A stretch of 45,591 bases of DNA from an uncultured Candidatus Saccharibacteria bacterium (GTDB lineage: Bacteria; Patescibacteriota; Minisyncoccia; Sungbacterales; SURF-37), in the NCBI GenBank assembly GCA_964505815.1, contig CAZDKA010000002.1, positions 1 through 45,591 on the forward strand, given 5' to 3'. The notes under the pieces were generated by a model. It saw nothing but the letters and a program-made list of their open reading frames with translations. It made no database searches and was not told the origin of the DNA. Below, piece by piece: positions 9,561 through 45,591 of this stretch. Each line of letters opens with the position of its first letter. The stretch's first letter is position 1. The position numbers were made by a program, and so were the translations under genes.

Positions 9561-9602
9561 AAAATACGTTTTAATATGCTATAGCATATTAAAACGTATT
9601 TT
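9561..9602. repeat. Palindrome family C, copy 1 (42-bp perfect palindrome)
   Basis: AAAATACGTTTTAATATGCTA|TAGCATATTAAAACGTATTTT checked base by base. Shares the AAAATACGTTTTA arm with 21527-21570. Confidence 0.9.
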
Positions 9603-11055: not shown

Positions 11056-11097
11056 AATGTTCCATATAGCAAGCGGCCGCTTGCCATATGGAACATT
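11056..11097. repeat. 42-bp near-perfect palindrome (single copy in window)
   Basis: AATGTTCCATATAGCAAGCGG|CCGCTTGCCATATGGAACATT, one mismatch, 46 nt upstream of the folD ATG. Confidence 0.85.
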
Positions 11098-11206
11098 GCT
11101 GTAACCCATGAAAAACAAAAAAGGAAGCGCGATGGCTTCCTTCATTCCTCTTGTAGTTATTGACGGCATGCCGAATTGGACCCATTCAACCAACCGGTAA
11201 CTATTG

Positions 11207-11236
11207 TAAAAACTTACGCGATCGCGTAAGTTTTTA
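11207..11236. repeat. Palindrome family B, copy 1 (30-bp perfect palindrome)
   Basis: TAAAAACTTACGCGA|TCGCGTAAGTTTTTA. Same core as 42183-42210 and 42969-42994. Confidence 0.9.
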
Positions 11237-11310: not shown

Positions 11311-11631
11311 TCATTCAGGGCAATAGAGTCTCGTTTCAACGCCGTCAAACATTCCCTCGCCCTTTGCTACCAGATACCCGTCCTTTGCAAAGTAGACCTT
11401 CCACTCACCCTTGCTGATCTTTTCAAACCGGGCCTCTCCGTTTACTGGCTTTCTTGTTAGCAGTCCCTCGTGCACACTCCGAATCACCACATGCTCGATT
11501 TTCTCAGCCGGATTTACACATACAACCAACGTGGTGGGCACGAAGAACCTATCGTAAATCAACAGGCCAACGATGCCAATAAGAACTGCTGACAAAACAA
11601 CTGCCAATCCTACTCGCGTCTTTCTAGACAC
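11311..11631 (-). CDS. Small membrane-anchored protein, unknown function
   Basis: N-terminal TM helix VGLAVVLSAVLIGIVGLLIY. Sits directly after glyA in the same orientation. Confidence 0.5.
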   Translation of the reverse strand: MSRKTRVGLAVVLSAVLIGIVGLLIYDRFFVPTTLVVCVNPAEKIEHVVIRSVHEGLLTRKPVNGEARFEKISKGEWKVYFAKDGYLVAKGEGMFDGVETRLYCPE

Positions 11632-13642: not shown

Positions 13643-13832
13643 ATATTAACTGATGTGAAACCACGGACGCAATACCCAGAATTTGAAAAGGCCGCGCAGG
13701 CGGAAAAAAGAATGTTAACACTTTATCGACGATCGTCTACAAATTGTTAACAATCAAGATCGCTATAGAATAGGGCCATTTTAGTAATCCGTGCTATCTC
13801 CACTCCAAAAGCCAATCAAGTTCTTGCGGACG

Positions 13833-19785: not shown

Positions 19786-19934
19786 ATCCCGCCCCAGTTT
19801 TACCATACCATGCTAATTTACGATGACAGTTGGAAAAAGTTTATTAACATTTTGCGACGCGCGTGTGCGAATAGCACAACCCTTATTGGGCGCAGCGCGT
19901 CGCTTAGGTGTCCTTTGTAAAACTGGGGCGGGAT
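19786..19934. repeat. Family D structured element, copy 1 (149 nt; candidate ncRNA or non-autonomous element)
   Basis: Perfect 18-bp outer inverted repeat ATCCCGCCCCAGTTTTAC (19786-19803) / GTAAAACTGGGGCGGGAT (19917-19934). Then a 50-nt variable part, the 50-nt core at 19854-19903 and a 13-nt tail. Confidence 0.85.
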
Positions 19935-21526: not shown

Positions 21527-21570
21527 CAAAATACGTTTTAGCAAGCGATAGCATGCTAAAACGTATTTTG
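21527..21570. repeat. Palindrome family C, copy 2 (17-bp stem, 10-nt loop)
   Basis: CAAAATACGTTTTAGCA (21527-21543) / TGCTAAAACGTATTTTG (21554-21570). Confidence 0.9.
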
Positions 21571-21599
21571 CAGAAAAGATACTATCCTGTTTTTATTGG

Positions 21600-21680
21600 T
21601 TGACAACTTTTTGGCTCGGCGTATGCTTAATGCGTTCCTTAAAATCAGTACCACTTCTCACATAAAGGAGGGTCATCATA
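21600..21680 (+). promoter_or_regulatory. Promoter plus conserved leader of the secreted-protein family (copy P1)
   Basis: TTGACA at 21600-21605. Leader TTCCTTAAAATCAGTACCACTTCTCACATAAAGGAGGG is almost identical to 27637-27715 and partly shared with 43440-43515. Confidence 0.55.
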
Positions 21681-22067
21681 ATGAAACGATTTTTGGTGGC
21701 TTTTGCGGCTATCCTTGCGGTTTCTTCAGTGGCTTTCGCCCAGATCCCGACGCTGCCGGATTATGAAAAAGAAGCAAAACTTATTGGAACCGCAAAGTGC
21801 GACAACGGCGAGACGACCGTAACCGCCTACCGTAAAAGCGAAGACTACTTCGACTACTTCATAGAAGTTACACAAACAAAATCCGGCAACATGTTCTACC
21901 TTATGGGCACGGGCACGGGGCCACACTACTTCATGAAAGCCGCTGGCCAGCCGCAGGCAGAAGAAATGGATGCACAGTCCTGGAGTAAAGCAATTCAAGC
22001 CGAAGGCAACAGCCCGAATTTCTTGGCTTGGAGTCTTCTCCAAACGAGTGACTGTAAGGTGCTGTAA
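21681..22067 (+). CDS. Small secreted protein, LPDY(Q/E)K family, paralog P1
   Basis: Signal peptide MKRFLVAFAAILAVSSVAFA, then QIPTLPDYEKE and two conserved Cys (CDNGETT ... SDC). Paralogous to 27716.., 28124.. and 43065... Confidence 0.65.
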   Translation: MKRFLVAFAAILAVSSVAFAQIPTLPDYEKEAKLIGTAKCDNGETTVTAYRKSEDYFDYFIEVTQTKSGNMFYLMGTGTGPHYFMKAAGQPQAEEMDAQSWSKAIQAEGNSPNFLAWSLLQTSDCKVL

Positions 22068-22170
22068 AGTCAAGCTAGTCCAACAAGAAGACTACCTCAC
22101 CAAACGGGGAAAACAATGCTCCCCTTTTTTTATTTTTCATTATTCATCCGCTTTAACGCAAAAAGTGTAA

Positions 22171-22206
22171 TTCCAAAGTAAATTGCTTAAGCAATTTACT
22201 TTGGAA
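22171..22206. repeat. Palindrome family A, copy 1 (36-bp perfect palindrome)
   Basis: TTCCAAAGTAAATTGCTT|AAGCAATTTACTTTGGAA, between convergent P1 and leuS. Confidence 0.9.
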
Positions 22207-22249: not shown

Positions 22250-24772
22250 TTACACTACAAAGTTGATGAGCTTGTTTTTAACGAAGATTACTTTTTGGGG
22301 AACGCCTGGAACATATTTTCTGACCACGGGATTCTCAAGCGCCATTTTCCGCGCCTCGTCTTCTGATGCGCCCGTTCCTGCTGTAAGTGTTGCCCGGACC
22401 CTGCCGTTGACTTGCACGACAAGCGGGAAGGTTTCCTCCATCAAGTAGCTACTTTCAAATTTCGGCCAGGGCGAGCGGTGAATGCTTGTTTTGTTGCCGA
22501 GAGAACTCCAAAGTTCTTCGCTGATGTATGGGGCAAACGGGGCGAGCAGCTTCAAAAATATTTCCGCATCGCCGCGCGTAACTCCACCTCGTCCGGAGGT
22601 AAGTTCGTTAAGAAGCACCATAAGAGCGGAGATTGCGGTATTATACCGCAATCCTTCAATATCCTCGGTGACTTTTTTGATGGTTTTGTGGATAAATCGG
22701 TCTAAAGACGAACGACCAACGCCAAAAGCTGCTTTTGTCTTTTGTCTTTTGTCTTTTGTCCGTTGATATAACTTCCATACTCGTTCCAAAAACCGGGTAA
22801 TGCCGCGGATGCCGGTATCTCTAAAATCGCCGCCCTGCTCAAACGGCCCCAAAAACATCAAATACATCCTAAGGGCATCTGCGCCATAGAGTTTAATGTA
22901 TTCGTCGGGGTTGACCACGTTGCCTCGGGACTTGGACATCTTTGCTCCATCCTTGATAAGCAAGCCGTGCGCGCGGAACTTTTTGAACGGCTCATCAAAT
23001 TTAGCAAGACCCCAGTCGTGAAAGGCCATAGTCAAGAAACGCGTGTAGAGAAGATGCAATACGGCATGCTCCGCTCCGCCGATATAGATATCAACCGGAA
23101 GCCACTTTCTTGCCCTGAGCCCATCGAAGAGTTGTTTTTTGTTGCGAACATCAATGTAACGGTAGTAATACCAAGCCGAATCAAGAAACGTATCCGAAAC
23201 GTCTGTCTCTCTCCGCGCAATTTTTCCGCAGTCCGGACATTTGACGCGGAAGAAGGACGGCGCCTCGGCAAGCGGCGACTGGCTCGTGCCGGTAGGCCTG
23301 AAATCTTTGATGAACGGCAGTTTCACCGGCAGATCTTTTTCGGAAACGGAGTACCATCCCGGCATGTCTTTCTTCTCGCCTCTTCCTTTTTGGGCGCACT
23401 CGTCGCAAAAAATCATTGGGATGGGCGGGCCCCAATAGCGTTGTCTAGAAATCAGCCAATCGCGGAGCCGATACTGCGTTTTAAATTTTGCTTTCAAGCT
23501 CTCGGCAACGAGACGCCGCGCCTCCTGCGAGCGCATCCCGTTTGCCCATCCGGAGTTCAGAAGCCGCCCCTCGGCAAGATACGGGGCTCGCAACACTCCA
23601 TGTGAGGCGCCGTCGTCGGATATGACTTCGCGGATCGGCAGATTGAATTTTTTGGCAAACTCAAAGTCGCGCTCGTCATGTCCCGGTACGGCAATAATCG
23701 CGCCCGTGCCTACTCCTCCCAAAACATAATCGGAAACCCATATGGGTATTACTTCGCTATTCGCGGGGTTTATGGCGTATGAGCCGAGAAACGCTCCGGT
23801 TTTGCTTTTTGTCGCGTCAGTCCTTTCTATTTCGTCTTTCTTGGCGGCTTCGCGGAGATAACTTTGAACCGCGTCTTTGCGCTCTTTGGTAATGAGCCCT
23901 GCTAACAGCGGGTGCTCGGGTGAGAGCACCATGTAGGTTGCCCCGAACAAGGTGTCGGCTCGGGTGGTAAACACTTCAATAAACGCTGATTCACGCGGAT
24001 CTATGCGCGGATTATCGCTGATTCTGGTTCTGCGTTGATCCGCGTTGTAATCTGCGTTTATCTGCGTAGCGATTGGGAATTTAATAAGGGCCCCATCGCT
24101 GCGGCCGAGCCAGTTTCTTTGGGCGATTTTTACATTTTCCGACCAGTCAATTTTTTCTAAATTATTCAGCAGCCGTTCGGCATACGCGGTGATTTTGAAG
24201 AACCATTGCTCAAGCTCGCGTTTAATCACCTTTGTCTCGCATCTCTCACACTCGCCGGCCAGCACCTGTTCATCGGCAAGAACAGTTAGACACGACGGAC
24301 ACCAGTTAACCGCGGCTTTTTTGCGATAGGCCAGACCGCGCTTGAACATCTCGACGAAAATCCACTGGGTCCATTTGTAATAATCCGGGCGATAGGTCGC
24401 GAGGCGCTCTTTCCAGGCAAAACCGTTGCCGATCATTTGAAGCTGGTCGTAGAAGCGCTTCTCGGAAACTTCGGCCTGCTTCATGGGATGGACGCCGACT
24501 TTCAGGGCGTAGTTTTCGGAATGGATGCCAAAGCCGTCAAGGCCGATCGGTTCAAAAACATCATAACCCTGCATGCGTTTTGCTCGGCCGTAAATATCGG
24601 CGCCGACAAAAGCATACATGTTGCCGACGTGCAGGCCTTCGGCCGAGGGGTAAGGAAACATCATCAGATTATAGAATGGTTTTTTGGCCCGCTTAAAATC
24701 GGGCTCGTAAGTTCCCCTGGCCAGCCACCTTTTCTGCCATTTCTCCTCAATCTGTTTCGGCTGATAACGCAT
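22250..24772 (-). CDS. leuS: Leucyl-tRNA synthetase
   Basis: Start taken at MRYQPKQIEEKWQKRW. HIGH-like PYPSAEGLHVGN, VFTTRADTLFGATY, KMSKSRGNVV. Confidence 0.95.
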   Translation of the reverse strand: MRYQPKQIEEKWQKRWLARGTYEPDFKRAKKPFYNLMMFPYPSAEGLHVGNMYAFVGADIYGRAKRMQGYDVFEPIGLDGFGIHSENYALKVGVHPMKQAEVSEKRFYDQLQMIGNGFAWKERLATYRPDYYKWTQWIFVEMFKRGLAYRKKAAVNWCPSCLTVLADEQVLAGECERCETKVIKRELEQWFFKITAYAERLLNNLEKIDWSENVKIAQRNWLGRSDGALIKFPIATQINADYNADQRRTRISDNPRIDPRESAFIEVFTTRADTLFGATYMVLSPEHPLLAGLITKERKDAVQSYLREAAKKDEIERTDATKSKTGAFLGSYAINPANSEVIPIWVSDYVLGGVGTGAIIAVPGHDERDFEFAKKFNLPIREVISDDGASHGVLRAPYLAEGRLLNSGWANGMRSQEARRLVAESLKAKFKTQYRLRDWLISRQRYWGPPIPMIFCDECAQKGRGEKKDMPGWYSVSEKDLPVKLPFIKDFRPTGTSQSPLAEAPSFFRVKCPDCGKIARRETDVSDTFLDSAWYYYRYIDVRNKKQLFDGLRARKWLPVDIYIGGAEHAVLHLLYTRFLTMAFHDWGLAKFDEPFKKFRAHGLLIKDGAKMSKSRGNVVNPDEYIKLYGADALRMYLMFLGPFEQGGDFRDTGIRGITRFLERVWKLYQRTKDKRQKTKAAFGVGRSSLDRFIHKTIKKVTEDIEGLRYNTAISALMVLLNELTSGRGGVTRGDAEIFLKLLAPFAPYISEELWSSLGNKTSIHRSPWPKFESSYLMEETFPLVVQVNGRVRATLTAGTGASEDEARKMALENPVVRKYVPGVPQKVIFVKNKLINFVV

Positions 24773-24811: not shown

Positions 24812-24944
24812 ACCCCGTTAGAAGTCAGTGTTTCCGGCAATAAAGCTTCCTACCAATAAAACTTCTCTGGCTGTTTTTGTCCCCCCGACTCAGTGCATAA
24901 AAATTTCGCTGCGAAATTTTTATGCACTGGACTTCTAGCGGGGT
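24812..24944. repeat. Family E hairpin element, copy 1 (nested hairpins, 133 nt)
   Basis: Outer stem ACCCCGTTAGAAGTC (24812-24826) / GACTTCTAGCGGGGT (24930-24944) with one T-G pair. It encloses a perfect 19-bp hairpin CAGTGCATAAAAATTTCGC / GCGAAATTTTTATGCACTG (24891-24929). Confidence 0.85.
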
Positions 24945-25544: not shown

Positions 25545-26414
25545 TCATATTCCAAAAATATTCCGCGCGTTCTTTGCGGTTTCTCCCGCGATTTCTTCAA
25601 ACGGCAGTCCCTTTAGCTCGGCAATCTTTTTTGCTACCTCAGCGACATAGGCGGGCTCGTTCCTTTTTCCGCGATAGGGTATGGGCGCGACATAAGGTGC
25701 GTCAGTTTCAAGAAGTATCCGTTCAAGCGGAATTAAGCGTACAACTTCGTCGTAATCGCGTGCAAAGGTAATGACCCCGCCGAATGAAAACGAGAAGCCG
25801 AGGCCGAGCAGTTCTTTGGCATCGGCCTCCGTGCCGCTGAAAAAGTGAATAATGCCCGGGTTGCTCGAATTATGAATTATGAAGTACGAATTAAGGATCT
25901 CAATCAAATCTTTGAACGCGTTCCGGCAATGCACCATAAGCGGTTTTTTTACCTCAAGAGAGAGTTCGATCTGTGCGGTAAACGCTTTTTTCTGCTTCAT
26001 AATTCCTAATTCCTTATTCCTAATTCTGTAGTAATCCAAGCCGCACTCGCCTATGGCGACTACTTTTTTATGCCCTGCAAGTTTTTTGTAAAATTCGTAG
26101 TCAAACTCTTCTCCGCGACTCACGAAGCCACCGGCAACATTCTCACATTCTTGAGAATGTGAGAATGTCCCGAGCTCCTTGGGGTCATGGTATGACTTTT
26201 CGGTATGAATCGGGTGGAGCCCCGTTGTGGCGTAAACGGCTTCCGGATGGCGCTCGGCTAATTTTATCGCGTTCTCCGAAGTATCTTTTTGCGTGCCGAC
26301 ATTAACCATCCATACTCCTTGCTCCAACGCCCGTTTAATTACCAAATCAGCGTCATCTTTGAATGCTGCGAATTGAACGTGGGTATGGACGTCAAAAAAT
26401 TTCGGGGTTGACAT
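25545..26414 (-). CDS. tatD: TatD-family metal-dependent hydrolase
   Basis: FDVHTHVQF, GLHPIH, AIGECGLDY, HCRNAF, ETDAPY. Carries two extra segments encoded by repetitive DNA. Confidence 0.9.
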   Translation of the reverse strand: MSTPKFFDVHTHVQFAAFKDDADLVIKRALEQGVWMVNVGTQKDTSENAIKLAERHPEAVYATTGLHPIHTEKSYHDPKELGTFSHSQECENVAGGFVSRGEEFDYEFYKKLAGHKKVVAIGECGLDYYRIRNKELGIMKQKKAFTAQIELSLEVKKPLMVHCRNAFKDLIEILNSYFIIHNSSNPGIIHFFSGTEADAKELLGLGFSFSFGGVITFARDYDEVVRLIPLERILLETDAPYVAPIPYRGKRNEPAYVAEVAKKIAELKGLPFEEIAGETAKNARNIFGI

Positions 26415-26819: not shown

Positions 26820-26966
26820 CCCCGCACTAATTTTGCCGTGGTGAAAACGGCTTTGCTTGAATTACATAATTGAATTATTGCGTGTGCGAGGCGCGTGCGC
26901 GGATAGCGCATCCCTCGGTGGGCGAAGCGCCTCGCTATAGTATATCTCGCAAAATTAGTGCTGGGG
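26820..26966. repeat. Family D structured element, copy 2 (147 nt)
   Basis: Outer arms CCCCGCACTAATTTTGC (26820-26836) / GCAAAATTAGTGCTGGGG (26949-26966, one bulged T). 49-nt variable part, core at 26886-26935, 13-nt tail. Confidence 0.85.
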
Positions 26967-27469: not shown

Positions 27470-27566
27470 GGGCCGCAGAATCACCAAATCCGCGTCGTCC
27501 TTACCCCCGTTAGAGGCGGTGCCTCTAATGGGGTGAAAACGCGGCGAGTTGAACGTAGGTATGAAT
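27470..27566 (-). pseudogene. Relic of the 5' end of a tatD paralog, split by a family E hairpin
   Basis: The minus strand reads IHTYVQLAAFS, then a 31-nt insert, then KDDADLVI. Intact tatD reads VHTHVQFAAFKDDADLVI. Hand count: 24/33 and 20/24 identical nucleotides. Confidence 0.7.
27505..27533. repeat. Family E hairpin, copy 2a
   Basis: CCCCGTTAGAGGC-ggt-GCCTCTAATGGGG, a 13-bp stem with one G-T pair. Confidence 0.85.
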
Positions 27567-27633
27567 CCCGTTAGAAATAAGCCGCCCTAAAGCGGCTACC
27601 GCCGCTTCAAAGGAGGGCGGATCTCTAACGGGG
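27566..27633. repeat. Family E hairpin, copy 2b (nested)
   Basis: CCCGTTAGA ... TCTAACGGG closes an inner GCCGCCC/GGGCGG pairing and AAGCGGC-tacc-GCCGCTT. Confidence 0.8.
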
Positions 27634-27636
27634 TGC

Positions 27637-27715
27637 TTGACAACTTTTTGGCTAGGGCGTACGCTTAATGTGTTCCTTAAAATCAGTACCACTTCTTACA
27701 TAAAGGAGGGTCATA
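27637..27715 (+). promoter_or_regulatory. Promoter plus conserved leader of the secreted-protein family (copy P2)
   Basis: TTGACA at 27637-27642. The leader is nearly identical to 21600-21680. Confidence 0.55.
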
Positions 27716-28090
27716 ATGAAACGATTTTTCGCGGCTTTTGCAGCCGTTCTCGCGATTTCCAGCGCGGCTTTTGCCCAGGTCCCGACGCTTCCTGACTACC
27801 AAAAAGACGGCAAGCCAGATGAGGCTTACGTTTGCGACAATGGTCAGACAACCGCCAGATACTACTTGCATGATGATTGGAGCATCCTGGAAGTCAACAC
27901 TGCATCCGGTGACGTCCTTGTGGATATGGTAGGTCGAGGCGGTATGGGATTTTTCGTTAAACAGACCGGGGCCGACAAGATGCCTGCAGTCTCACACGAG
28001 GAGTGGGATACGGCCCTTTTGGAAAAGGCGCCGGCCGTCTACCACGCACTGCACGGCACTGGCCCATCAGACTGCGCGCCCAAGAAGTAA
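27716..28090 (+). CDS. Small secreted protein, LPDYQK family, paralog P2
   Basis: Signal peptide MKRFFAAFAAVLAISSAAFA, QVPTLPDYQKDGK, CDNGQTT ... PSDC. Confidence 0.65.
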   Translation: MKRFFAAFAAVLAISSAAFAQVPTLPDYQKDGKPDEAYVCDNGQTTARYYLHDDWSILEVNTASGDVLVDMVGRGGMGFFVKQTGADKMPAVSHEEWDTALLEKAPAVYHALHGTGPSDCAPKK

Positions 28091-28123: not shown

Positions 28124-28495
28124 ATGAAACGAATTTTCGTTTTTCTGGCCGCACTGCTTATTATTCCCGCTATAGCGCTGGGTATTACCCTGCCTGACTA
28201 TCAGAAAGACGGCAAAGTTACTGAAACCTGGATCTGCGATCATGGCCAAACGACCACCCGAACTTACGCCGACAAAGACGAGATGTGGGCCGCTTACGAA
28301 ATCACTGCTTCTTCAGGAGATATTCTTGTCTATCTCCAGAGCGTAAACGGCCAAGGTTTCTTCATGAAACGCGCCGGCTCGTCCGAAATGGCTGAAAGCA
28401 CATTTGAAGAATTTGACCCGCTGTTCAAAAAGCTCGCACCGGAAACCCACAAGAGTTTCACCGGCAGATCTAACGACTGCGTGCAAAAAGACTAG
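28124..28495 (+). CDS. Small secreted protein, LPDYQKDGK family, paralog P3
   Basis: AAAGGAGG before the ATG. Signal peptide, ITLPDYQKDGK, CDHGQTT ... SNDC. Tandem with P2. Confidence 0.65.
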   Translation: MKRIFVFLAALLIIPAIALGITLPDYQKDGKVTETWICDHGQTTTRTYADKDEMWAAYEITASSGDILVYLQSVNGQGFFMKRAGSSEMAESTFEEFDPLFKKLAPETHKSFTGRSNDCVQKD

Positions 28496-30651: not shown

Positions 30652-30689
30652 TTTCCAAAGTAAATTGCTTAAGCAATTTACTTTGGAAA
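30652..30689. repeat. Palindrome family A, copy 2 (38-bp perfect palindrome)
   Basis: TTTCCAAAGTAAATTGCTT|AAGCAATTTACTTTGGAAA, 24 nt past the stop of 30714..31415. Confidence 0.9.
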
Positions 30690-30713: not shown

Positions 30714-31415
30714 TCAAACAAAAGCAAAATGTTTTCTTATGTCATCGTCATGCACAATATGATTCGTCTCAACTAATCGAACATACTCGCCAACGCCGTA
30801 AAGAGAGATAATAAACTCTAGTTCCTCATTGCAGGGATACGGAAACACGAAAACGCTCCTCTGAAGCGAATAAAAACCTATTGCTTTCAACTTTTCTCGA
30901 AATCCTTCACGCGCTGATTTGTGTGTATCAGGAATATCGAATACGACTATGCGCCATGTGCCGTCCCACAAATCCGGTCTCCGGATTATAAATGTGTTGT
31001 ATGCTCTTTGGATGGCTCGTTTTTCTCCTAACTTCGTAAGGCTAATTTCATATTCATTTTCATTTATCTTCGAAGCGGAAACAAAATTTTGTTTCTTAAG
31101 AACGGCGAGCTCGCGTTGAAAATACCCACTATGCATATATGTTCGATATATTCTTCTGCCGCGCATACGTCCGAAGGCGCTAAATATATTGGGGGCGGCA
31201 GCAGCAACAGTAAGCGCTCCAGCAACTAGAAGCAAGGCGAGAAGCCCCTTACCAAATGCAATGCCTCCCGCTTTTGCCGCACGAATCATATCTTCTCGTT
31301 TCGTTGCCTTTTCGGCTTCTGCCCATTCTTGCCGCATGTGCCTTATAAAAAACTCCCTGTGATCTAAAAGGCGTGGAATAATTTTCTTCTCGTATTTTCT
31401 CTTCGTACCAGTCAT
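30714..31415 (-). CDS. Membrane-anchored PaaX-like protein (winged helix plus Cas2-like central domain), paralog A
   Basis: TM segment GLLALLLVAGALTVAAAAPNIFSAFGR. Wing-like YEISLTKLGEKRA. WDGTWRIVVFDIPDTHKSAREGFREKLKAIGFYSLQRSVFVFPYP follows the PaaX/Cas2-like pattern. Paralog of 42235..42963. Confidence 0.6.
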   Translation of the reverse strand: MTGTKRKYEKKIIPRLLDHREFFIRHMRQEWAEAEKATKREDMIRAAKAGGIAFGKGLLALLLVAGALTVAAAAPNIFSAFGRMRGRRIYRTYMHSGYFQRELAVLKKQNFVSASKINENEYEISLTKLGEKRAIQRAYNTFIIRRPDLWDGTWRIVVFDIPDTHKSAREGFREKLKAIGFYSLQRSVFVFPYPCNEELEFIISLYGVGEYVRLVETNHIVHDDDIRKHFAFV

Positions 31416-31433: not shown

Positions 31434-31467
31434 TCCAAACTAAATTGCTTAAGCAATTTAGTTTGGA
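31434..31467. repeat. Palindrome family A, copy 3 (34-bp perfect palindrome, symmetric variant)
   Basis: TCCAAACTAAATTGCTT|AAGCAATTTAGTTTGGA, 18 nt upstream of the ATG at 31415. Differs from copies 1 and 2 by a G>C change mirrored in both arms. Confidence 0.9.
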
Positions 31468-32650: not shown

Positions 32651-32800
32651 CATCCCTCTCCAATTTTGCCCTATAAAGAGATACGAAGCTATACTAACCC
32701 TTGACTTTACTAGTGTACGCGAGGCGCGTGCGCGAATAGCGCATCCCTCGACGGGCGAAGCGCCTCGCCGCGGCCTGCTTCGCAAAATTGGGGATGGGAT
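32651..32800. repeat. Family D structured element, copy 3 (150 nt)
   Basis: Outer arms CATCCCTCTCCAATTTTGC (32651-32669) / GCAAAATTGGGGATGGGAT (32782-32800), with one T-G pair and one mismatch. 49-nt variable part, core at 32719-32768, 13-nt tail. Confidence 0.85.
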
Positions 32801-38008: not shown

Positions 38009-38593
38009 TTAAGCGAGATGCTCGGCAAAAAGACGCGATGTAACCTCATCAAGCCGTCTTACCTCGGAGGCCTCCCCGACGGTTGCAAATTCGGCGCATG
38101 GCAGGAGAAGGCATCTTGATGTTGGCTCGGAAAAAAGACCGAGTTCGTCAAGGAAGCGAGCGCGGAACCAAACGAGCCCTGCTTTCTGCTCCTCGGAGCC
38201 AAGTGTCGGGCCATTAAGCAGGTCCAGCATTTCTAAAGCTACAGCAAAAAAATTTCCGTTTTCTTCACGGCGATCCTCAAAAAGCGCGCTGCCTACGGCC
38301 CCAAATATTTCAGAAGCGGCCCTTAGTCGGAACGGATCGCTCTTGATTGCCGGGAAAAAATTAAGAAGCTCCGCGCCGACCAGACGGTAATTATTCCTTC
38401 CGGCAACAAATGAAAGCCGCGAAAGGGAAAGCGGTTCAAGATGACCCTTGAGTTTTGCTTCAACTTTGCGCGCTCCTTGGGCAATGAGCCGAATATTCAC
38501 AAATCGGTCGGTCAGCGCAGTAATCAAAAGATCGGCCTCGCCGAGTTCTTCTTTCCTGAGAATGATTGCGTCAGTTACGTGCATAGTGTTCAC
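38009..38593 (-). CDS. recO: DNA repair protein RecO (short form)
   Basis: AIILRKEELGEADLLITALT ... EPLSLSRLSFVAGRNNYRLVGAE matches the RecO OB-fold N-terminus. ATGA-type overlap with the ileS stop. Confidence 0.7.
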   Translation of the reverse strand: MNTMHVTDAIILRKEELGEADLLITALTDRFVNIRLIAQGARKVEAKLKGHLEPLSLSRLSFVAGRNNYRLVGAELLNFFPAIKSDPFRLRAASEIFGAVGSALFEDRREENGNFFAVALEMLDLLNGPTLGSEEQKAGLVWFRARFLDELGLFSEPTSRCLLLPCAEFATVGEASEVRRLDEVTSRLFAEHLA

Positions 38594-41500
38594 GCTCTAT
38601 CAATCCCTACCCAAAGCTCGTGGCCGTCAATAGAGAGCTCGCGCTCAACCGCAAACACTTTCTTGCCGCCGAGCGTAAAAATTTTGGCGCCGGTTTCTTT
38701 TTCAACAAATTTCTTAGAGCGCTCCAGCATCTTAAGCATCTCCGCGTCTCCCGCGGCCTGTAGTTTTATAGGGTGCTCTGGCCGAAGGCCCAGGTCTTTT
38801 CTCATCTCCTGGACATTCCGCACAAACTCTCTAAGCCATCCCTCTTCACGGAGTTCCGGGGTAATTTCGGTATCAAGCTCAACCTCGCCGGCTATTGTTT
38901 CGTCTCTTACGATTTCTTTCACGTTCACCTCGTCTCTAACTACATCCAACAACTCCTTGCTCAACGTTACACTCTTCACCTTAGCCGTCCTTAAGGGTTG
39001 ACGAACTTTTATTCCGTGCTTTGCGCGCTCGGCAAGGATGAGTGCTACAAGGGCGCGGGCTTCGTGCATCTCGTAGAATTCAAACTCTACCGCTTTGACT
39101 TGCGGCCACGGCCGGAGGTGCACACTATTTTCTTTCAGTCCAAATTTCGGTTTTAGTTCCTGATAAATAATCTCAGCAAGAAAAGGAGTAAAGGGCGCTA
39201 CAAGCTCCGCGAGACGAAGAAGAGCCCAACCGGTTATCGCCGCCGCTTCATCCTTGTCGGCCTTTGATGCTGGTTTCTGGAAGCGGCGGCGTGACCTACG
39301 CAAATACCAATTCGAGAAATCGTCTAGAAGGAACCCTTCCAAATGCCGGGCGGCACCAACAACGTCGTAGGCATCAAGAAGCTTTCCAACAAGATTGCTG
39401 TAATATTCAAGTCGCCCGACCAGCCAACGGTCAAGAACAGTCGTTGCTCTGTGCCGCTGAATTTTCTTTCTTGGCACCTTGTCCACGTATGTATCAAAAA
39501 GCACGAAGCTGTTCCAAAGTGTTGCCAGCGGCCCGCGCAGTTTATTCAAAAGGTCTTTCTCATCAAAACGCTTTGGCTCGCCCGGGGGATTCGCGGTGAA
39601 GAAATACCAGCGGATGGTGTCAGCGCCGTATTTCTTCATCATCTCCCACGGATCCACCACGTTGCCTTTGGACTTAGACATCTTCTGACCGTTTTTATCA
39701 AGAACATGCCCCAGGGAAATTACATGGCGAAAGGGCGCCCCTTTTTCAAGAAGAGTCGCGACGGCCAAAAGGGTATAAAACCAGCCGCGCGTCTGATCAA
39801 CGCCTTCGGCGATAAAGTCGGCCGGATACAATAATTTTTCTTTTTGATTTTTGATTTTTGATTTTTGATTTTGAGCCCAAGCGAATGGGTAATGAGCTTG
39901 GGCGAACGGCATCGCCCCCGAGTCAAACCAAACGTCTGCCACATCTTTAACCCTCTCCATCTTGCCGCCGCAGGCCTGCCCGCCGGAAAGGCCTGACTTA
40001 CAGATAAGCCGCACCTCGTCAATAAATGGCCGGTGCAGATTCACTTCGCCCGAGTTGTCGCGAGGCAAATTTAAAAATTTGATGGGCTGAACTCCGGCAA
40101 GGCCTATGTAATCCTCTTTTCTGCCGCGTAATTTTATGATGCCGTCGCGGTCGAGGCCTCGGGATGCGCCGTCCAAAATCCAAATCGGATACTCATGGCT
40201 TATGATAAGAATTTTTTTGTTGCGGTATTTCCGGTCAATGTCCTGCATGAAACCCATCAGGCGGGCTCTCAAGTCAGAAAGCGACTCTCCTTCCGGCGGG
40301 GCTTTCGCAAAATACTCCTCGGCCGAGGAATAAAAGCCGTTATACTCTTTTGTCGGCCGGCCGTTGAATATGCCTACATTAATTTCCCGAACCCTTGTGT
40401 CTTTCAAAACCTCTTTAACGCCCAAAACCTCGGCGACAATTCGTGCGGCCTCTGTGGTACGGAGAACATCGGAGTGAATGATGATATCAATATTTTCTTT
40501 TTTTAATTTTTCCGCGGCCAATCTGATCTGCTCTTTGCCTAGATCGGTCATGTGGTATTTTGAGTTCGAGTCCGCGACAATACCCAAGAGCTGGGTTTCT
40601 GACTCGCCGTGGCGCAGAGCAAAATAAGTGTTGCCGGAACTTTTTGCTCTTCCGGCAAGTTCCTCAAGCGAGCTCAACGCTTCAACTGCTTTACACTTAG
40701 TGCATTCCCATATGGGCAAAGGCGTTCCCCAGTAGCGCTCTCTGGAAAAAGCCCAGTCGCGAAGTTCCGAGAGAAATTCGCCGAAGCGTCCGTCTTTTAT
40801 ATGCTCCGGAACCCAGTCGATGGTCTGGTTATTTTTAATCAGTTCCTGTTTAATTTTCGTCATCCGCACCCACCATGAATTTCTCGCGTAATAAAGAAGC
40901 GGCGTTCCGCATCGCCAGCAATGGGGATATTCGTGTTCATACGGCAAAATAGCAAAGAGCAGTTTTCTTTTTTTTAGGTCTTCCACAATGACCTTGTCGG
41001 CCTCCTTAACGAACTTTCCCTCGCCTATAACTCCTTTTTTCATCCTGCCGTCAGGATCAACCGTCTCCAGTATCGGATAGTCGCCCGAGTATTCTTTTTT
41101 CATCGCCGCCATATCCTCTTCCCCGTATGCCGGAGCAAGATGCACGAAACCCGACCCTTCTTCGGTAGAAACAAAATCCGCTCCGTAAACGCGGTAAGGG
41201 GGCGCTACTGTTCCGTAGTCGGAAGCCGGGGCATAGAGCGGCTCGTATGAGAGGCCGACTAGCGCCTTGCCGGAAACTTTCTCGGTAATTTCCGGAGAGG
41301 CCCCTTTGGCATCATAGGGCGGAACATTTGCCGACCATACAAACTCGTTGCCGATTTTAAACTTGGTGTATTCCGTTGTCGGGTTAACGGCAACGGCGAC
41401 GTTGGCCGGAAGAGTCCAAGGCGTCGTGGTCCAGACCAGCAGCGATTCGTTTTTTCTGTCTTTGATTTTTAAGCGGACGAAAACTGAATCCTCCTTTACT

Positions 41501-42102
41501 TTTATATACGCTCCGGGCTGGCCAAGTTCGTGCGAAGAAAGGCCGGTCTGGCACCTGGGGCACCACGGAATGATTTTAAAATCCTTATAAAGGAGACCTT
41601 TCTTCCAAATTTCTTTAATAATCCACCAGAGAGTTTCGATATAACTCGTCTCATAGGTAATATATGGATGCTCTAGATCAAGCCAAAAACCGATTCGCTT
41701 GGTCAAGCGCTCCCACTCTTCTTTAAAACGCCATACCGACTCGCGGCACTTCTCGTTGAACTCAGCAATACCGTAATGTTCAATGTCTTTTTTTGTCTTT
41801 AGGCCGAGTTCCTTTTCAACTTGAAGTTCCACCGGCAGACCATGCGTGTCCCAGCCGGCTTTTCTCAAAACCTGAAAACCGCGCATGGTCTTGTAGCGCG
41901 GAATTATGTCCTTGAAAGCTCGCGACTCAACATGGTGAATGCCAGGCGCGGCGTTAGCCGTCGGCGGCCCCTCATAAAAAATAAACGGCTTGCCCCGCTT
42001 GGTTTTTTGCAGGCTCTTCTCGAAAATCCTCTCCCGCTCCCAGAATTCAAGAATTTTTTGCTCTCTTCCAGGGAGATTGAATACCTGTTTCTTTTGCATC
42101 AT
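38590..42102 (-). CDS. ileS: Isoleucyl-tRNA synthetase (1170 aa) carrying an inserted domain
   Basis: PPTANAAPGIHHV (HIGH), WTTTPWTLPAN, CWRCGTP, KMSKSKGNVV, DQTRGWFYT. Confidence 0.95.
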   Translation of the reverse strand: MMQKKQVFNLPGREQKILEFWERERIFEKSLQKTKRGKPFIFYEGPPTANAAPGIHHVESRAFKDIIPRYKTMRGFQVLRKAGWDTHGLPVELQVEKELGLKTKKDIEHYGIAEFNEKCRESVWRFKEEWERLTKRIGFWLDLEHPYITYETSYIETLWWIIKEIWKKGLLYKDFKIIPWCPRCQTGLSSHELGQPGAYIKVKEDSVFVRLKIKDRKNESLLVWTTTPWTLPANVAVAVNPTTEYTKFKIGNEFVWSANVPPYDAKGASPEITEKVSGKALVGLSYEPLYAPASDYGTVAPPYRVYGADFVSTEEGSGFVHLAPAYGEEDMAAMKKEYSGDYPILETVDPDGRMKKGVIGEGKFVKEADKVIVEDLKKRKLLFAILPYEHEYPHCWRCGTPLLYYARNSWWVRMTKIKQELIKNNQTIDWVPEHIKDGRFGEFLSELRDWAFSRERYWGTPLPIWECTKCKAVEALSSLEELAGRAKSSGNTYFALRHGESETQLLGIVADSNSKYHMTDLGKEQIRLAAEKLKKENIDIIIHSDVLRTTEAARIVAEVLGVKEVLKDTRVREINVGIFNGRPTKEYNGFYSSAEEYFAKAPPEGESLSDLRARLMGFMQDIDRKYRNKKILIISHEYPIWILDGASRGLDRDGIIKLRGRKEDYIGLAGVQPIKFLNLPRDNSGEVNLHRPFIDEVRLICKSGLSGGQACGGKMERVKDVADVWFDSGAMPFAQAHYPFAWAQNQKSKIKNQKEKLLYPADFIAEGVDQTRGWFYTLLAVATLLEKGAPFRHVISLGHVLDKNGQKMSKSKGNVVDPWEMMKKYGADTIRWYFFTANPPGEPKRFDEKDLLNKLRGPLATLWNSFVLFDTYVDKVPRKKIQRHRATTVLDRWLVGRLEYYSNLVGKLLDAYDVVGAARHLEGFLLDDFSNWYLRRSRRRFQKPASKADKDEAAAITGWALLRLAELVAPFTPFLAEIIYQELKPKFGLKENSVHLRPWPQVKAVEFEFYEMHEARALVALILAERAKHGIKVRQPLRTAKVKSVTLSKELLDVVRDEVNVKEIVRDETIAGEVELDTEITPELREEGWLREFVRNVQEMRKDLGLRPEHPIKLQAAGDAEMLKMLERSKKFVEKETGAKIFTLGGKKVFAVERELSIDGHELWVGIDRA
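40063..40638 (-). other. Histidine-phosphatase (phosphoglycerate-mutase-like) domain inserted inside ileS
   Basis: Residues ~489-680: YFALRHGESETQ (RHG motif), HSDVLRTTEAA, ILIISHEYPI (second His). They lie between WECTKCKAVE and NLHRPFIDEV. Confidence 0.7.
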
Positions 42103-42182
42103 CTGTATTCTACGATGTTTTAGTGTTAAATCAAAGAAAGACGAATTTACATATCCCGCCCCATCCTATCCATCCCTACTGC

Positions 42183-42210
42183 AAAAACTTACGCGATCGC
42201 GTAAGTTTTT
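42183..42210. repeat. Palindrome family B, copy 2 (28-bp perfect palindrome)
   Basis: AAAAACTTACGCGA|TCGCGTAAGTTTTT, 24 nt past the stop of 42235..42963. Confidence 0.9.
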
Positions 42211-42234
42211 ACAGATACCAAATTGTAATTGTAA

Positions 42235-42963
42235 TCACTTCTTTAGGCCAAAAAATTCTTTGAGATCATCGTCGAAGTTGATGACTCTCGTCTCTACGTA
42301 GCGAAGATGGCCGCCCAGGTCGTACAGCCTCCTCAAAAACTCAATTTCCTCCCTACACGGATACGGAAAAACGAAGGTGCTTTTTTGAAGAGGGCAAAAG
42401 CCCATATTCTTTAGACATCGCCGCAGGCCATCCCTAGCCCATTTATCCCCCTCCGGGACATCAAAAAACACCAACCGCCAGATGCCGTCCCATTTTTCTG
42501 GGCGCAGAACTTTTAAGCCCCAAAACGCCCGTTTCGCTAACTGCTCTTGACCTAACTTGGTAAGCCGAACTTCCCTTGTTTCGTCTTCGGTCTTTACGAC
42601 GCTCACATAACCTCGCCGTTTGAAATAAGTTATTTTATTTTCAAAATCTTTCCGATGAAAATAGCGCCTGTGCTTGCCGAGCCGGCCAAACGCCGAAAAG
42701 ATGTTTGGCGCAACCGCACCCACTATCAAAATCCCGCACACCGCAGCCATACCTAAAATAGTAAGCCCCAAAACCGTTCCGGTTTCTTTCAGCGTTTCGC
42801 GCCGTCTGAGTTTACGCGCGTCTCTTTCAACCAATCTTTCCGCCTCCTCCCATTCTCTTTTAAGATGTTCAACGATAAAACGGCGGTTTTCCCGATTCTT
42901 AACTGCCCGTTTCACGAGTTTACTCTCATATCCTCTTTTAAAAATCTTCTTTCCTGTCCCCAT
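42235..42963 (-). CDS. Membrane-anchored PaaX-like protein (winged helix plus Cas2-like central domain), paralog B
   Basis: Start at MGTGKKIFKRGYE (ATG 42963). The 16 upstream codons of the track ORF are the palindrome itself. APNIFSAFGR and WDGIWRLVFFDVPEGDKWARDGLRRCLKNMGFCPLQKSTFVFPYP. Confidence 0.6.
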   Translation of the reverse strand: MGTGKKIFKRGYESKLVKRAVKNRENRRFIVEHLKREWEEAERLVERDARKLRRRETLKETGTVLGLTILGMAAVCGILIVGAVAPNIFSAFGRLGKHRRYFHRKDFENKITYFKRRGYVSVVKTEDETREVRLTKLGQEQLAKRAFWGLKVLRPEKWDGIWRLVFFDVPEGDKWARDGLRRCLKNMGFCPLQKSTFVFPYPCREEIEFLRRLYDLGGHLRYVETRVINFDDDLKEFFGLKK

Positions 42964-42968
42964 AGTTA

Positions 42969-42994
42969 AAAACTTACGCGATCGCGTAAGTTTT
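42969..42994. repeat. Palindrome family B, copy 3 (26-bp perfect core)
   Basis: AAAACTTACGCGA|TCGCGTAAGTTTT, ending 5 nt from the ATG at 42963. Confidence 0.9.
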
Positions 42995-43013
42995 AACAAG
43001 AGTGAAAACATAG

Positions 43014-43041
43014 GAATAAAAAAAGGCGGGATTACTCCCGC
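43014..43041 (-). terminator. Rho-independent terminator after paralog P4
   Basis: GCGGGA-gtaa-TCCCGC on the minus strand, followed by CTTTTTTT. Confidence 0.65.
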
Positions 43042-43064
43042 GTGCTGACTGACGGATGTTTCGC

Positions 43065-43439
43065 TTAGCGCTTGACGCAGTCCGACGGGCCGCCGCTGTG
43101 TATCCAGTAGAAAACAGCAGGTGCCTTCGCCTTAAGGTTTTTGTCCCACACCTGGTGAGTGACATCCTGCATCTGACTCGAGCCGGCAAGCTTCATGAAA
43201 AACTTGGGCTCGTCGCTGTCCAGTTCCACGAAAATGTCGCCGGTGTAAGTCCTGATTTCCCATACTCTCCACTCCTTGCTTGTGTATTTGCGGATCGTAT
43301 TCTGCCCCTTGTCGCAAGCGAGCGTGTACCCCAGCTTGCCGCTCTTTTGGTAGTCCGGCAGAGTGGCTGCGGCGAAGGCCGGAGCCAAGACCGAAGACAC
43401 TGTGAAAAGCGCGATAAGAACTGCCACCAAGAGCTTCAT
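43065..43439 (-). CDS. Small secreted protein, LPDYQK family, paralog P4
   Basis: Signal peptide MKLLVAVLIALFTVSSVLAPAFA, ATLPDYQKSGK, CDKGQNT ... PSDC. Confidence 0.65.
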   Translation of the reverse strand: MKLLVAVLIALFTVSSVLAPAFAAATLPDYQKSGKLGYTLACDKGQNTIRKYTSKEWRVWEIRTYTGDIFVELDSDEPKFFMKLAGSSQMQDVTHQVWDKNLKAKAPAVFYWIHSGGPSDCVKR

Positions 43440-43515
43440 GATGCCTCCTTTGTTAGATGCGGTACTGATTTAAGGAATAGAAGAAATATTAATCTCGGCC
43501 TGCTGATCTGTCAAT
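43440..43515 (-). promoter_or_regulatory. Promoter plus conserved leader of the secreted-protein family (copy P4)
   Basis: Minus strand TTGACA (43510-43515), 17 nt, TAATAT, then TTCCTTAAATCAGTACCGCATCTAACAAAGGAGG. Confidence 0.55.
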
Positions 43516-44046: not shown

Positions 44047-45591
44047 CTACATTTTTAAAGGTGCAGAAACGCCTAAAAGACCCAATGTATTTTGTAGCAC
44101 GATTTGGGTTGCCTTGACAAGGGCGAGCCGAGCGCCAGTTAAATCTTTATCTTCGGTAATAACCCGGTGCTGTTCGTAAAAATTATGAAATGCGCGGGCA
44201 AGCTCTGTGGCATAGCGGGCTATGCGAATCACTTGCAAATCCTGCGCCGCATCTTCAACTATTTCTGGAAATTGAATCAATTTTTTTATCAAGAATAATT
44301 CTTCTTTCGAATTAAGCTTTTTGAATTTTGAATTGTCATTTTGAATTTTGAATTTTGAATTTTGAATTCTTTGTAAGATGCCTCTGCATCTTACATATGC
44401 GTACTGCACGTAATAGACCGGATTTTTAACCGAGCGCTCTTTGGCAAGTTCCAGGTCAAAATCCATATGCGAGTCGGGAGTATGCATCAAAAAGAAAAAC
44501 CGCGCGGCATCTAGCCCGACTTCGTCAATCAGTTCTTCAAGGGTTATGAATACACCCTTGCGCTTGGACATTTTTACTTCAACCCCGCCGCGCACCAGCC
44601 GAATCAGTTGGGTGATGATGATTTTGAACTTTTCTTTTGGAACGCCGAGGGCTGAAAGAGCCCCGGATAGACGCTGGGCATAGCCGTGGTGATCCGCACC
44701 CCAGATATCAATCGCCCTGTCAAATTTGCGAACGAAGAATTTGTTGAGGTGGTAAGCGAGATCCGGCAGAAAATAAGTCGGCTCGCCGCCGGATCTGACA
44801 AGCACCCTGTCCTCCGAGTCGCCGAAACCCTTGGAGCGGAACCACACCGCGCCATCCTGCTCATAACTCAGACTCTTTTCTTTGAGTGAAACAAGAACCT
44901 GCCCGACCGCATTTATTTTGTAAAGCGACTCCTCTGAGAAAAATCTGTCAAAAGAAATATGCGCCTTATTTTTGAGAAATGCGGTGTTTTGTTTCTGAAT
45001 TTCCAGGCCCAATAGATGTCCGGCTTCACCCGAAAGATTTGCTGCGCCCTTTTTCTCGAGTTTGGATATTTTCGGCTTCAATTTGGCAATGATTTTTTTA
45101 ACTTCAGGCGTCAAATATGTCGTGCCATCGCCAAGAGCGGTTTTCCCGAGTTCTTTAATCTGGGTTGAGTTCTTGGCGTCATTGACGTAGTACTCCCTGG
45201 TAACGTCAAAACCCGCGAAAGCAAGAGTGTTAGAAACAGCATCGCCGTAAAACCCTCCTCTTCCGTTGCCGAGAGTCAGCAGGCCGGTTGGATTGGCTGA
45301 AACAAACTCAACATTGACCCTTTCTTTTTTATTCTCGCCTTGGCCGTAAGATTTTCCGCGCTTGAGCGCTACCCTTAACTCGTCAAAAATAGCTTCCTTG
45401 GAAAGCCAGAAATTAATAAAACCCTGAGGCGGGGCCTCAATTTTATCAAAAAGCGCAGAGGCGCCCAGACCCGTTACGATGGCACGAGCTACATCGGCAG
45501 TCGGTTTTTTGAAATTTTTTGCAAGCACCAGTGCGGCGTTTGTAGAATAATCGCCGTGCGCCGTATTTTCCGGAACTTCAACAGAAAAATC
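44047..45591 (-). CDS. argS: Arginyl-tRNA synthetase, N-terminus cut by window edge
   Basis: The frame stays open to base 45591 (DFSVEVPENTAHGDYSTNAALVLAK); the track M at 45528 is an internal GTG. SANPTGLLTLGNGRG, KMSKRKG, C-terminal DALR-type anticodon-binding region. Confidence 0.95.
   Translation of the reverse strand, partial: DFSVEVPENTAHGDYSTNAALVLAKNFKKPTADVARAIVTGLGASALFDKIEAPPQGFINFWLSKEAIFDELRVALKRGKSYGQGENKKERVNVEFVSANPTGLLTLGNGRGGFYGDAVSNTLAFAGFDVTREYYVNDAKNSTQIKELGKTALGDGTTYLTPEVKKIIAKLKPKISKLEKKGAANLSGEAGHLLGLEIQKQNTAFLKNKAHISFDRFFSEESLYKINAVGQVLVSLKEKSLSYEQDGAVWFRSKGFGDSEDRVLVRSGGEPTYFLPDLAYHLNKFFVRKFDRAIDIWGADHHGYAQRLSGALSALGVPKEKFKIIITQLIRLVRGGVEVKMSKRKGVFITLEELIDEVGLDAARFFFLMHTPDSHMDFDLELAKERSVKNPVYYVQYAYVRCRGILQRIQNSKFKIQNDNSKFKKLNSKEELFLIKKLIQFPEIVEDAAQDLQVIRIARYATELARAFHNFYEQHRVITEDKDLTGARLALVKATQIVLQNTLGLLGVSAPLKM

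Follow-up and report, generated by a model that had tools for sequence, protein, structure and literature searches.

The closest described relative of the proteins treated here is PaaX, the repressor of phenylacetate catabolism in E. coli and Pseudomonas, whose middle region is a dimerisation motif, whose operator in E. coli is TGATTC-N27-GAATCA with a span of 39 bp, and which represses its own promoter by occluding RNA polymerase (PMC9493321). The stretch under study, referred to as the window, comprises 45,591 nucleotides from an uncultured Candidatus Saccharibacteria bacterium (assembly GCA_964505815.1, contig CAZDKA010000002.1, positions 1 to 45,591) and contains a gene encoding a small PaaX-related protein, mini-PaaX paralogue B, with one copy of a long palindrome on each side (locus B). 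Locus B is one member of a large family of stand-alone, palindrome-bracketed mini-PaaX modules in Patescibacteria (Candidate Phyla Radiation, CPR); the module is widespread and specific to CPR bacteria, and no description of the mini-PaaX family or of the palindrome bracket was found in the literature searched. The module is most likely a matched pair of repressor and binding site. On balance, the favoured explanation is that a dimeric mini-PaaX binds the palindromes that bracket its gene, the upstream one being an autoregulatory operator and the downstream one a predicted second operator.

In this explanation, mini-PaaX would dimerise through its Cas2-like domain, as PaaX does, and the dimer would lie across about 38 bp of double-stranded DNA, its conserved parts reading a GC-N4-GC centre and its variable winged helices reading the variable outer arms. 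The upstream site would overlap or abut the promoter of the gene itself, which would be occluded by the bound protein; in the lineage of B, with a proposed -10 within the palindrome and an mRNA that probably lacks a leader, the bound protein would stop its own production. The downstream site may act as a second operator by looping, as a roadblock or insulator, or in the control of the next gene (here ileS), and the few extra copies (here the solo copy of Table 1) would be additional targets. The span of the family palindromes matches that of the 39-bp PaaX operator, the likeness being one of span only, as the sequences differ.

The palindrome bracket in the window and across the family

The 26-nt perfect palindrome AAAACTTACGCGATCGCGTAAGTTTT shows exactly three copies in the window (42184-42209, 42969-42994 and 11209-11234), where 100 dinucleotide-preserving shuffles give an expectation of 0 matches; these shuffles, together with the absence of long palindromes from shuffled family loci, rule out a chance origin. 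Two of the copies bracket the B gene exactly as stated in the initial annotation of this DNA, which was made from the sequence alone: one 5 nt from the ATG at 42963 and the other 24 nt past the stop. The upstream palindrome is also found 1-5 nt 5' of the ATG in the orthologues L001, L102 and L145-L149. An in-frame ATG at 43011 would give a longer open reading frame (ORF) running through the palindrome, and the start at 42963 is preferred because twenty homologues align from it. The downstream palindrome shows an imperfect extension reaching 42179-42214 and sits about 50 nt upstream of the -35 of an ileS promoter-like site (42134-42107). A small membrane protein is encoded at 11311..11631 (minus strand); the third copy comes after the terminator of that gene and stands about 200 nt upstream of folD. 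Locus A, which contains the sole other mini-PaaX paralogue of the window, shows the same architecture with a different palindrome, as had been proposed, and its upstream copy differs from the downstream one by one symmetric (complementary) substitution pair. The proposal that each palindrome is private to its locus does not hold, since each has a third copy (an exact one at 11209-11234 for B, and one at 22171-22206 for A). Three further long palindromes of the same class, at 9561-9602, 21527-21570 and 11056-11097, have no cognate gene in the window.

No purine-rich Shine-Dalgarno sequence is present before the B gene, as had been noted, and other genes of the window carry AAGGAGG. A leaderless promoter would explain this. 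The arrangement TTG(T/C)(T/A)A-17-TAAGTT-6/7-ATG is kept in all three B-lineage loci examined (the window, L001 and L145) and is constant although the outer edges of the palindrome shift, which suggests a leaderless-promoter geometry with the spacer and the -10 within the palindrome. A sigma-70-like site was found in 18 family loci, and in 14 of these the best one overlaps the upstream palindrome, about 40% being expected by chance on a rough estimate.

The family shows 47 close matches, and the few with names belong to Patescibacteria groups. At least 540 family loci were confirmed among GTDB species representatives, and the family clusters at 50% identity number 5,642 with E <= 0.001 and 1,043 with E <= 1e-30. 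The homologues found so far come almost all from Patescibacteria (CPR) assemblies, the few other labels being probably mis-binned contigs. Among 2.9 million viral contigs only one partial family match was found, and a phage origin was set aside on this count.

Eighty loci were fetched and the 260 nt on each side of the gene were compared, both flanks being available in 74. The flanks share an exact 12-mer or longer in 50 of these (68%), against 24 of 538 control ORFs of similar size from the same loci (4.5%; 0.7% for a 16-mer or longer). What the flanks have in common is, in most cases, a palindrome particular to the locus, 24-48 bp long (median 38). The upstream copies are 0-80 nt before the start; most downstream copies are no more than 50 nt past the stop codon, the extremes being overlap with it and a distance of about 180 nt. 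Perfect zero-spacer palindromes with arms of at least 13 nt number 50 in 1.21 Mb of family loci and 0 in block-shuffled sequence, and 37 of the 50 sit no more than 300 nt from a family gene. Extra copies within 10 kb on either side are present in five of 43 loci, a rarity by which a proliferation like that of repetitive extragenic palindromic (REP) sequences was discarded.

No neighbour gene family is conserved across 84 loci, and the syntenic B orthologue (L102 and L145-L149, with the order ArgRS ... B ... IleRS) has no secreted-protein gene; the module is thus the gene with its two palindromes. The initial annotation had also pointed to a secreted-protein gene. This gene, P4, is directly upstream of B on the same strand, with promoter-like and terminator-like sites and a leader similar to that of its paralogues, but it is missing from the syntenic loci L102 and L145, and a secreted paralogue as conserved partner was rejected. 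The five strain-level contigs L145-L149 show an identical arrangement, and the agreement of these five independent assemblies rules out an assembly artefact.

A metagenome scan for B-like palindrome cores gave 63 loci. About half of them are other long palindromes on the CTTAYRCGATCGYRTAAG core with different arms, and six (L102, L114, L123, L135, L141 and L133) have either a family gene adjoining the palindrome or two palindromes as a bracket. The scan brought up no additional contig from the source genome. Among the metagenome loci L087-L143, many unrelated contigs show perfect palindromes of 26-56 nt on the CTTAYRCGATCGYRTAAG core with other outer arms, for example TGTTAACAACTTATGCGATCGCATAAGTTGTTAACA, which is found in five contigs; most of these short contigs have no family gene.

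The mini-PaaX protein and the design of its sites

Both paralogues match PF20803 (PaaX_M, 'PaaX central Cas2-like domain') above the gathering score, with E = 7.4e-20 for B and 1.4e-21 for A. Protein B shows charged N-terminal helices, an uncharged hydrophobic stretch of 33 residues (about aa 63-95), a winged helix (about 104-148) and PaaX_M (157-237). Its AlphaFold2 (AF2) model, built on 21 homologues (mean predicted local distance difference test score, pLDDT, 75.6; above 90 in the C-terminal 80 residues), contains two charged N-terminal helices, a helix of the hydrophobic segment (56-76), a low-confidence linker, a helix/beta-hairpin/helix unit (104-148) and a ferredoxin-like domain (157-237). 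The top Foldseek match of the model in the PDB is E. coli PaaX (8a39, E = 1.4e-5, 183 aligned columns), followed by the PaaX-like structures 3l09 and 3kfw and then by many Cas2 structures, and a PDB-sequence profile search with B gives weak matches to the recognition helix and wing of MarR and to Cas2.

Protein B is excluded as a PaaX orthologue by its whole-protein score against TIGR02277, the PaaX equivalog (21.5 bits, and 26.3 for A, against a curated cut-off of 264.55), by the lack of a Pfam match to the PaaX_C effector domain, B ending about five residues after the Cas2-like domain, and by the absence of paa genes from the window, whose genes include those for aminoacyl-tRNA synthetases, FolD, SHMT and GlmS. 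The N-terminal winged-helix domain of PaaX gives no Pfam match in B, but the model aligns with 8a39 over 183 columns, and there is the weak match to a MarR-type recognition helix and wing. Against Cas2 models, B and A score 18.5 and 21.1 bits with PF09827, both under the cut-off of 23.8; with TIGR01573, B scores 19.7 bits, below the cut-off of 24.5, and A 25.6 bits, above it but only over positions 3-39 of 96. In A and B only PaaX_M and Cas2-like domains were found, and neither a recombinase nor a transposase domain. The matches in PADLOC are all partial and to Cas2, and membership in a defence system was dropped; a CRISPR-Cas locus was rejected, as no annotated ORF of the window shows a cas domain, cas1 included, and the direct repeats of the window include no CRISPR array.

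Conservation across 84 members is highest in the Cas2-like domain (2.44 bits per column) and reaches 1.59 bits in the candidate recognition helix. The invariant residues are G138, W158, D159, W162, D168 and S195, and D168, conserved in 100% of the members, is at the position of the metal-binding (catalytic) Asp of Cas2. In 64 of the 84 homologues, an uncharged segment of 19-33 residues with KD19 of at least 1.6 precedes the winged helix with constant spacing. The C-terminal flank of this segment is more positive than its N-terminal flank in 48 of 60 homologues, which fits a predicted cytoplasmic location of the DNA-binding part, and the segment is predicted, from the sequence only, to insert in the membrane or associate with it.

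For the design of the sites, 52 distinct palindromes were aligned on their centres, with positions counted outward from the dyad. G occupies position 3 of the half-site in 96% of them and C occupies position 4 in 77%, which gives a GC-N4-GC centre, as in GCGATCGC, GCTATAGC, ACGATCGT, GCATATGC, GCACGTGC and GCTTAAGC; A and T prevail at positions 5-12, and further out the arms vary. Of 48 palindromes found from their arms only, 38 have a palindromic inner hexamer (1.6% by chance), and this dyad symmetry through the centre fits a two-fold symmetric protein on duplex DNA and not a hairpin loop.

Half-site similarity, compared with protein identity by a Mantel test, rises with it (r = 0.22, p = 0.001): mean half-site identity is 0.34-0.38 where the proteins are less than 40% identical, 0.54 at 50-70% and 0.86 above 70%. 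Paralogue relatedness tracks palindrome sequence, a check that the initial annotation had suggested. The B orthologues L001 (63% identical) and L102/L145 (68%) carry ...CTTACACGATCGTGTAAG..., which is palindrome B with a symmetric pair of changes, G to A and C to T. In L073, L031 and L028, which are syntenic, all downstream of leuS, with proteins 85-87% identical, the 28-nt imperfect core TAATAAATTAGCTATAGCATAATTATTA is identical, its asymmetries included, and the adjacent intergenic DNA has diverged; as judged from this comparison of sequences, the core is a phylogenetic footprint of purifying selection. What had been proposed for A and B as matched pairs of protein and site is supported by the frequency of the bracket (68% against 4.5%), the own arms of each paralogue, the Mantel trend and the B-like sites of the orthologues, but exclusive use is not supported, since the palindromes are not private.

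Alternative readings of the module

Several observations weigh against operators of an autoregulatory repressor. When flanking copies are compared, with the better palindrome as reference and its partner found by similarity alone, they differ mostly by complementary double changes, 19 against about 2.9 expected (P ~3e-10), besides 11 non-complementary doubles and 58 single changes, many of these at the outer ends. This excess points to intrastrand pairing at some stage or to quasipalindrome template-switch correction, and independent half-site evolution does not predict it. About one third of the loci show no shared flank sequence, and L044, L033 and L060 show mixed palindromes; unbracketed or mixed paralogues were what the initial annotation would have counted against matched pairs, and they exist beside a majority of 68% that is bracketed. 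The proposed -10 of the putative B promoter fits three of six consensus positions and the consensus scan did not report this promoter, so that we infer it from the spacing conserved in three loci. The downstream and solo copies of palindrome A and the palindrome at 9561-9602 are in convergent intergenic regions, with no promoter there to control. Since extra copies are rare, most paralogues would mainly regulate themselves, which is odd for a genome of about 1 Mb. Finally, a role of the Cas2-like domain in dimerisation alone would not require the catalytic Asp, D168.

It is rather unlikely that the module is instead a chromosome-to-membrane tether or loop organiser, in which a predicted membrane protein would bridge palindrome copies and anchor or insulate sites, with secondary effects on transcription. 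By analogy with Noc-NBS and ParB-parS, such a protein could close loops of 0.8 kb that contain its own gene, and longer ones that reach the solo copies. The hydrophobic segment before the winged helix with its positively charged C-terminal flank would suit this role, as would the presence of sites in all intergenic types, promoterless convergent ones included, their typical position between transcription units and beside real terminators, and the rule of two copies per gene. However, membrane insertion is predicted only, and part of the stretch might be the counterpart of alpha-1/alpha-2 in the winged helix of PaaX, AF2 confidence being low there; the few sites per paralogue would tether very little DNA, no oligomerisation domain is evident beyond the Cas2-like dimer, and the upstream copies are placed like operators.

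A selfish or mobile cassette, with the palindromes as its ends or recombination sites and a Cas2-like domain that cuts or recombines at the restriction-site-like centre, is unlikely. Solo palindromes would then be empty or scar sites, and other small genes could be carried between the same palindromes. The module stands alone without a conserved neighbour, D168 and other Cas2 signature residues are invariant, the centres resemble restriction sites of 6-8 bp, and in L037/L076 and in L029/L079 synteny is lost immediately downstream of the module. Two further observations favour a cassette and at the same time count against autoregulatory operators. One is that modules occupy different slots of the conserved backbone o438-M16-AI2E-MetRS-TatD-LeuRS-GlmS according to lineage: the order is AI2E-[A]-MetRS in the window and LeuRS-[module]-GlmS in L073/L031, whereas in L052 the module follows GlmS, and the 13 nt between LeuRS and GlmS there retain no palindrome. 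The other is a palindrome pair in L133, 784 nt apart, which encloses two unrelated small ORFs; in L102, a locus of the same metagenome, it is the B orthologue that this pair encloses. The enclosed ORFs (56 and 65 aa; metagenome contig Ga0209541_10027321, 3839-4668) have no Pfam match and are beside clpB.

The tests for a mobile element lower this reading, as no signs of transposition were found. Target-site duplications, sought as direct repeats of at least 5 nt at the outer edges, are present in 0 of 20 loci, no identical multi-copy elements exist, paralogues within one genome being 30-45% identical, and neither a recombinase or transposase domain nor more than the single partial viral match speaks for mobility. 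Orthologues are syntenic at 68% and at 85-87% protein identity, position varying at greater distance. Each flanking copy is palindromic by itself even where the copies differ, which argues against a recent crossover at the centre, since this would give hybrid asymmetric sites. A more specific version has a slim chance: a catalytically competent Cas2 homologue, guided by its winged helix, would cut or recombine the flanking repeats as a new minimal mobile or self-excising cassette, any non-self cargo, as in L133, being mobilised in trans, and it could be a living relative of the step that joined a Cas2-type protein to palindromic direct repeats.

Very improbable is a role of the palindromes as nucleic-acid structures, such as bidirectional terminators, stability hairpins at mRNA 5' or 3' ends or cruciforms, with an indirect association to the gene or with a protein that binds RNA hairpins: palindrome B has an A5 and T5 frame and could terminate in both directions, flanking copies differ mainly by compensatory double changes, all four palindromes tested fold as single strands far better than shuffles (z = -4.8 to -9.8), and relatives of Cas2 and VapD include RNases, but most family palindromes, that of family A too, are A/T-rich without a flanking T-run, the real terminators of the window are short G+C-rich hairpins that adjoin the palindromes, symmetry runs through the would-be loop, the imperfect palindrome of L073/L031/L028 retains its asymmetries across species, and the G invariant across the family at position 3 on each side of the centre is not needed for a stem. 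The terminator scan did not flag palindrome B despite its A5/T5 frames and partly G+C-rich inner stem. Pairing at the RNA level was rejected, since mismatches on the sense strand show no G-U bias, and the symmetric changes are explicable by quasipalindrome template-switch correction, which can yield them without selection for a hairpin.

With the autoregulatory repressor and its palindromic operators as the favoured explanation, the family would represent an unannotated regulatory layer in CPR bacteria, which have tiny genomes and few recognisable regulators, with the probable DNA targets beside each gene. A repressor and operator of PaaX type are of a known kind; what stands out here is the scale, the cis architecture, the Cas2 signature and a ready-made library of pairs. 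Thousands of matched protein-palindrome pairs on one scaffold could help to decode the specificity code of winged helices, and compact orthogonal repressor-operator pairs could be drawn from the family. How Cas2, PaaX-type regulators and the recognition of repeats are related can be tested directly on proteins that keep the full Cas2 signature and whose genes adjoin palindromic direct repeats, and the downstream site and hydrophobic segment could reveal looping, insulation or membrane tethering.

Other features of the window and comparison with known systems

Table 1. Positions of the mini-PaaX modules, their palindromes and the gene upstream of B in the window
Feature	Position	Strand	Description
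mini-PaaX paralogue B gene	42235..42963	minus	242 aa; ATG 42963-42961, TGA 42237-42235
Upstream palindrome B	42969..42994	no strand	perfect 26-mer, 5 nt 5' of ATG; proposed operator over core promoter
Downstream palindrome B	42183..42210	no strand	perfect 28-mer, 24 nt 3' of stop
Solo palindrome B (third copy)	11207..11236	no strand	perfect 30-mer
Putative leaderless promoter of B	42971..42999	minus	-35 TTGTTA (42999-42994), 17-nt spacer, -10 TAAGTT (42976-42971), 7 nt to ATG
Secreted paralogue P4	43065..43439	minus	124 aa, signal-peptide-like N-terminus; upstream neighbour of B
mini-PaaX paralogue A gene (sister module)	30714..31415	minus	233 aa; 42% identical to B
Upstream palindrome A	31434..31467	no strand	18 nt 5' of ATG
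Downstream palindrome A	30652..30689	no strand	perfect 38-mer, convergent intergenic region
Solo palindrome A (third copy)	22171..22206	no strand	44 nt past leuS stop, convergent intergenic region

P4 is one of four secreted paralogues of the window (21681..22067, 27716..28090, 28124..28495 and 43065..43439), which show 34-42% mutual identity. For P4, TTGACA-17-TAATAT at 43514-43486 resembles a promoter and 43041-43026 a terminator. At least three of the four show a conserved 5' leader after a TTGACA promoter (21618-21679, 27656-27717 and 43440-43514); the leader has 62 nt, is 94% identical between two of them, is present in a recognisably similar version before P4 and ends in AAGGAGG. It could be a regulatory leader. 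The paralogue at 21681..22067 (plus strand) has a palindrome of family C on one side and solo palindrome A on the other (21527-22206), a mixed bracket with centres 640 nt apart whose enclosed gene is no relative of PaaX; this too is at odds with a simple repressor.

Family C comprises the palindromes at 9561-9602 and 21527-21570, 12 kb apart, which have the outer arms AAAATACGTTTTA in common and inner parts that differ largely symmetrically, with centres GCTATAGC and GCGATAGC; its gene is presumably elsewhere in the genome, because the window has no cognate mini-PaaX. The palindrome at 11056-11097 (centre GCGGCCGC) ends 45 nt before the folD ATG, beside a promoter-like TATGCT. Between it and the solo copy of palindrome B, the 95 nt at 11108-11202 (minus strand) fold better than shuffles (z = -2.9) and terminate in a terminator-like hairpin with a T-run; this segment could be a small RNA transcribed from a promoter-like site embedded in the palindrome. 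No known RNA or tRNA was found in the window. A single long palindrome at 13710-13755 has the centre CGATCG, and another at 24891-24929, in the leuS/orf169 divergent region, has an odd-length centre and inverted motifs CCCCGTTAGA / TCTAGCGGGG on either side; similar motifs, CCCGTTAGA / TCTAACGGGG, reappear at 27505-27640. Related 32-nt palindromes (ACATTCT..AGAATGT) are located in frame within coding regions at 7115-7146, 26137-26168 and, in L145, 15965-15996: one in an AMMECR1-domain gene and one in tatD, both apparent short insertions within the domain, and the third in a large ORF of the related genome L145.

A G+C-rich element of 50 nt is present in three copies (19854-19903, 26886-26935 and 32719-32768), 80-94% mutually identical; it is internally self-complementary (GCGAGGCGCG...CGCGCCTCGC), stands in otherwise A/T-rich intergenic DNA and has no Rfam match. 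The IleRS encoded downstream of B (38590-42102, minus strand) has a histidine-phosphatase domain inserted at residues 496-651 (PF00300, E = 5e-29), an insertion also present in the L145 orthologue. Short tandem repeats of the TTTTG(A/T)/CTTTTG type are present in leuS, ileS and argS, one per gene (22725-22758, 39834-39867 and 44297-44364), and encode lysine-rich insertions, such as KSKIKNQKEK in IleRS and NSKFKIQNDNSKFKK in ArgRS.

Among known systems, Noc-NBS and ParB-parS are like mini-PaaX in combining palindromic chromosomal sites at or near the own gene with a membrane-associated protein, predicted as such for mini-PaaX, Noc being a membrane binder. In contrast, mini-PaaX has an unrelated fold without a CTPase or ParB domain, its sites are of 24-48 bp and very few, and each genome contains many divergent paralogues, each with its own site. 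Insertion sequences whose transposase binds a promoter in the terminal repeat share with mini-PaaX a compact format, one ORF in about 0.85 kb between terminal inverted repeats that are formally perfect, of which the upstream one overlaps the promoter and would give autoregulation; mini-PaaX differs from them in showing no transposase fold, no target-site duplications (0/20), no identical copies within a genome and syntenic orthologues. The REP sequences and their RAYT proteins (REPIN-RAYT) also show a single gene flanked by a family-specific palindromic repeat, several families per genome and further copies in intergenic regions, often after gene ends. They have tens to hundreds of dispersed repeat copies per genome; the mini-PaaX sites, counted in a single 45.6-kb contig of this genome, show three copies per family, and usually two elsewhere; mini-PaaX has no HUH/Y1 transposase, and its palindromes are longer and perfect through the centre.

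Cas2 and VapD-type nucleases share with mini-PaaX the ferredoxin-like fold and the signature hhhhDh-P...R...G(F)..hQxSVF, including the metal-binding Asp, and the flanking direct repeats are palindromic and of CRISPR-repeat-like length (24-48 nt); the mini-PaaX domain differs in being fused to a winged helix and a hydrophobic segment, with just two repeats that bracket the gene itself. PaaX resembles mini-PaaX in having a winged helix followed by a Cas2-like PaaX_M dimerisation domain, in providing the top structural match (8a39), and in its long dyad operator of about 39 bp; repression of the own promoter is a known feature of PaaX. Unlike PaaX, mini-PaaX shows no PaaX_C, which in PaaX binds phenylacetyl-CoA, and has a hydrophobic N-terminal segment and the Cas2 catalytic Asp, presumably lost in E. 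coli PaaX, and its site is a continuous palindrome with a GC-N4-GC centre located on both sides of the gene.

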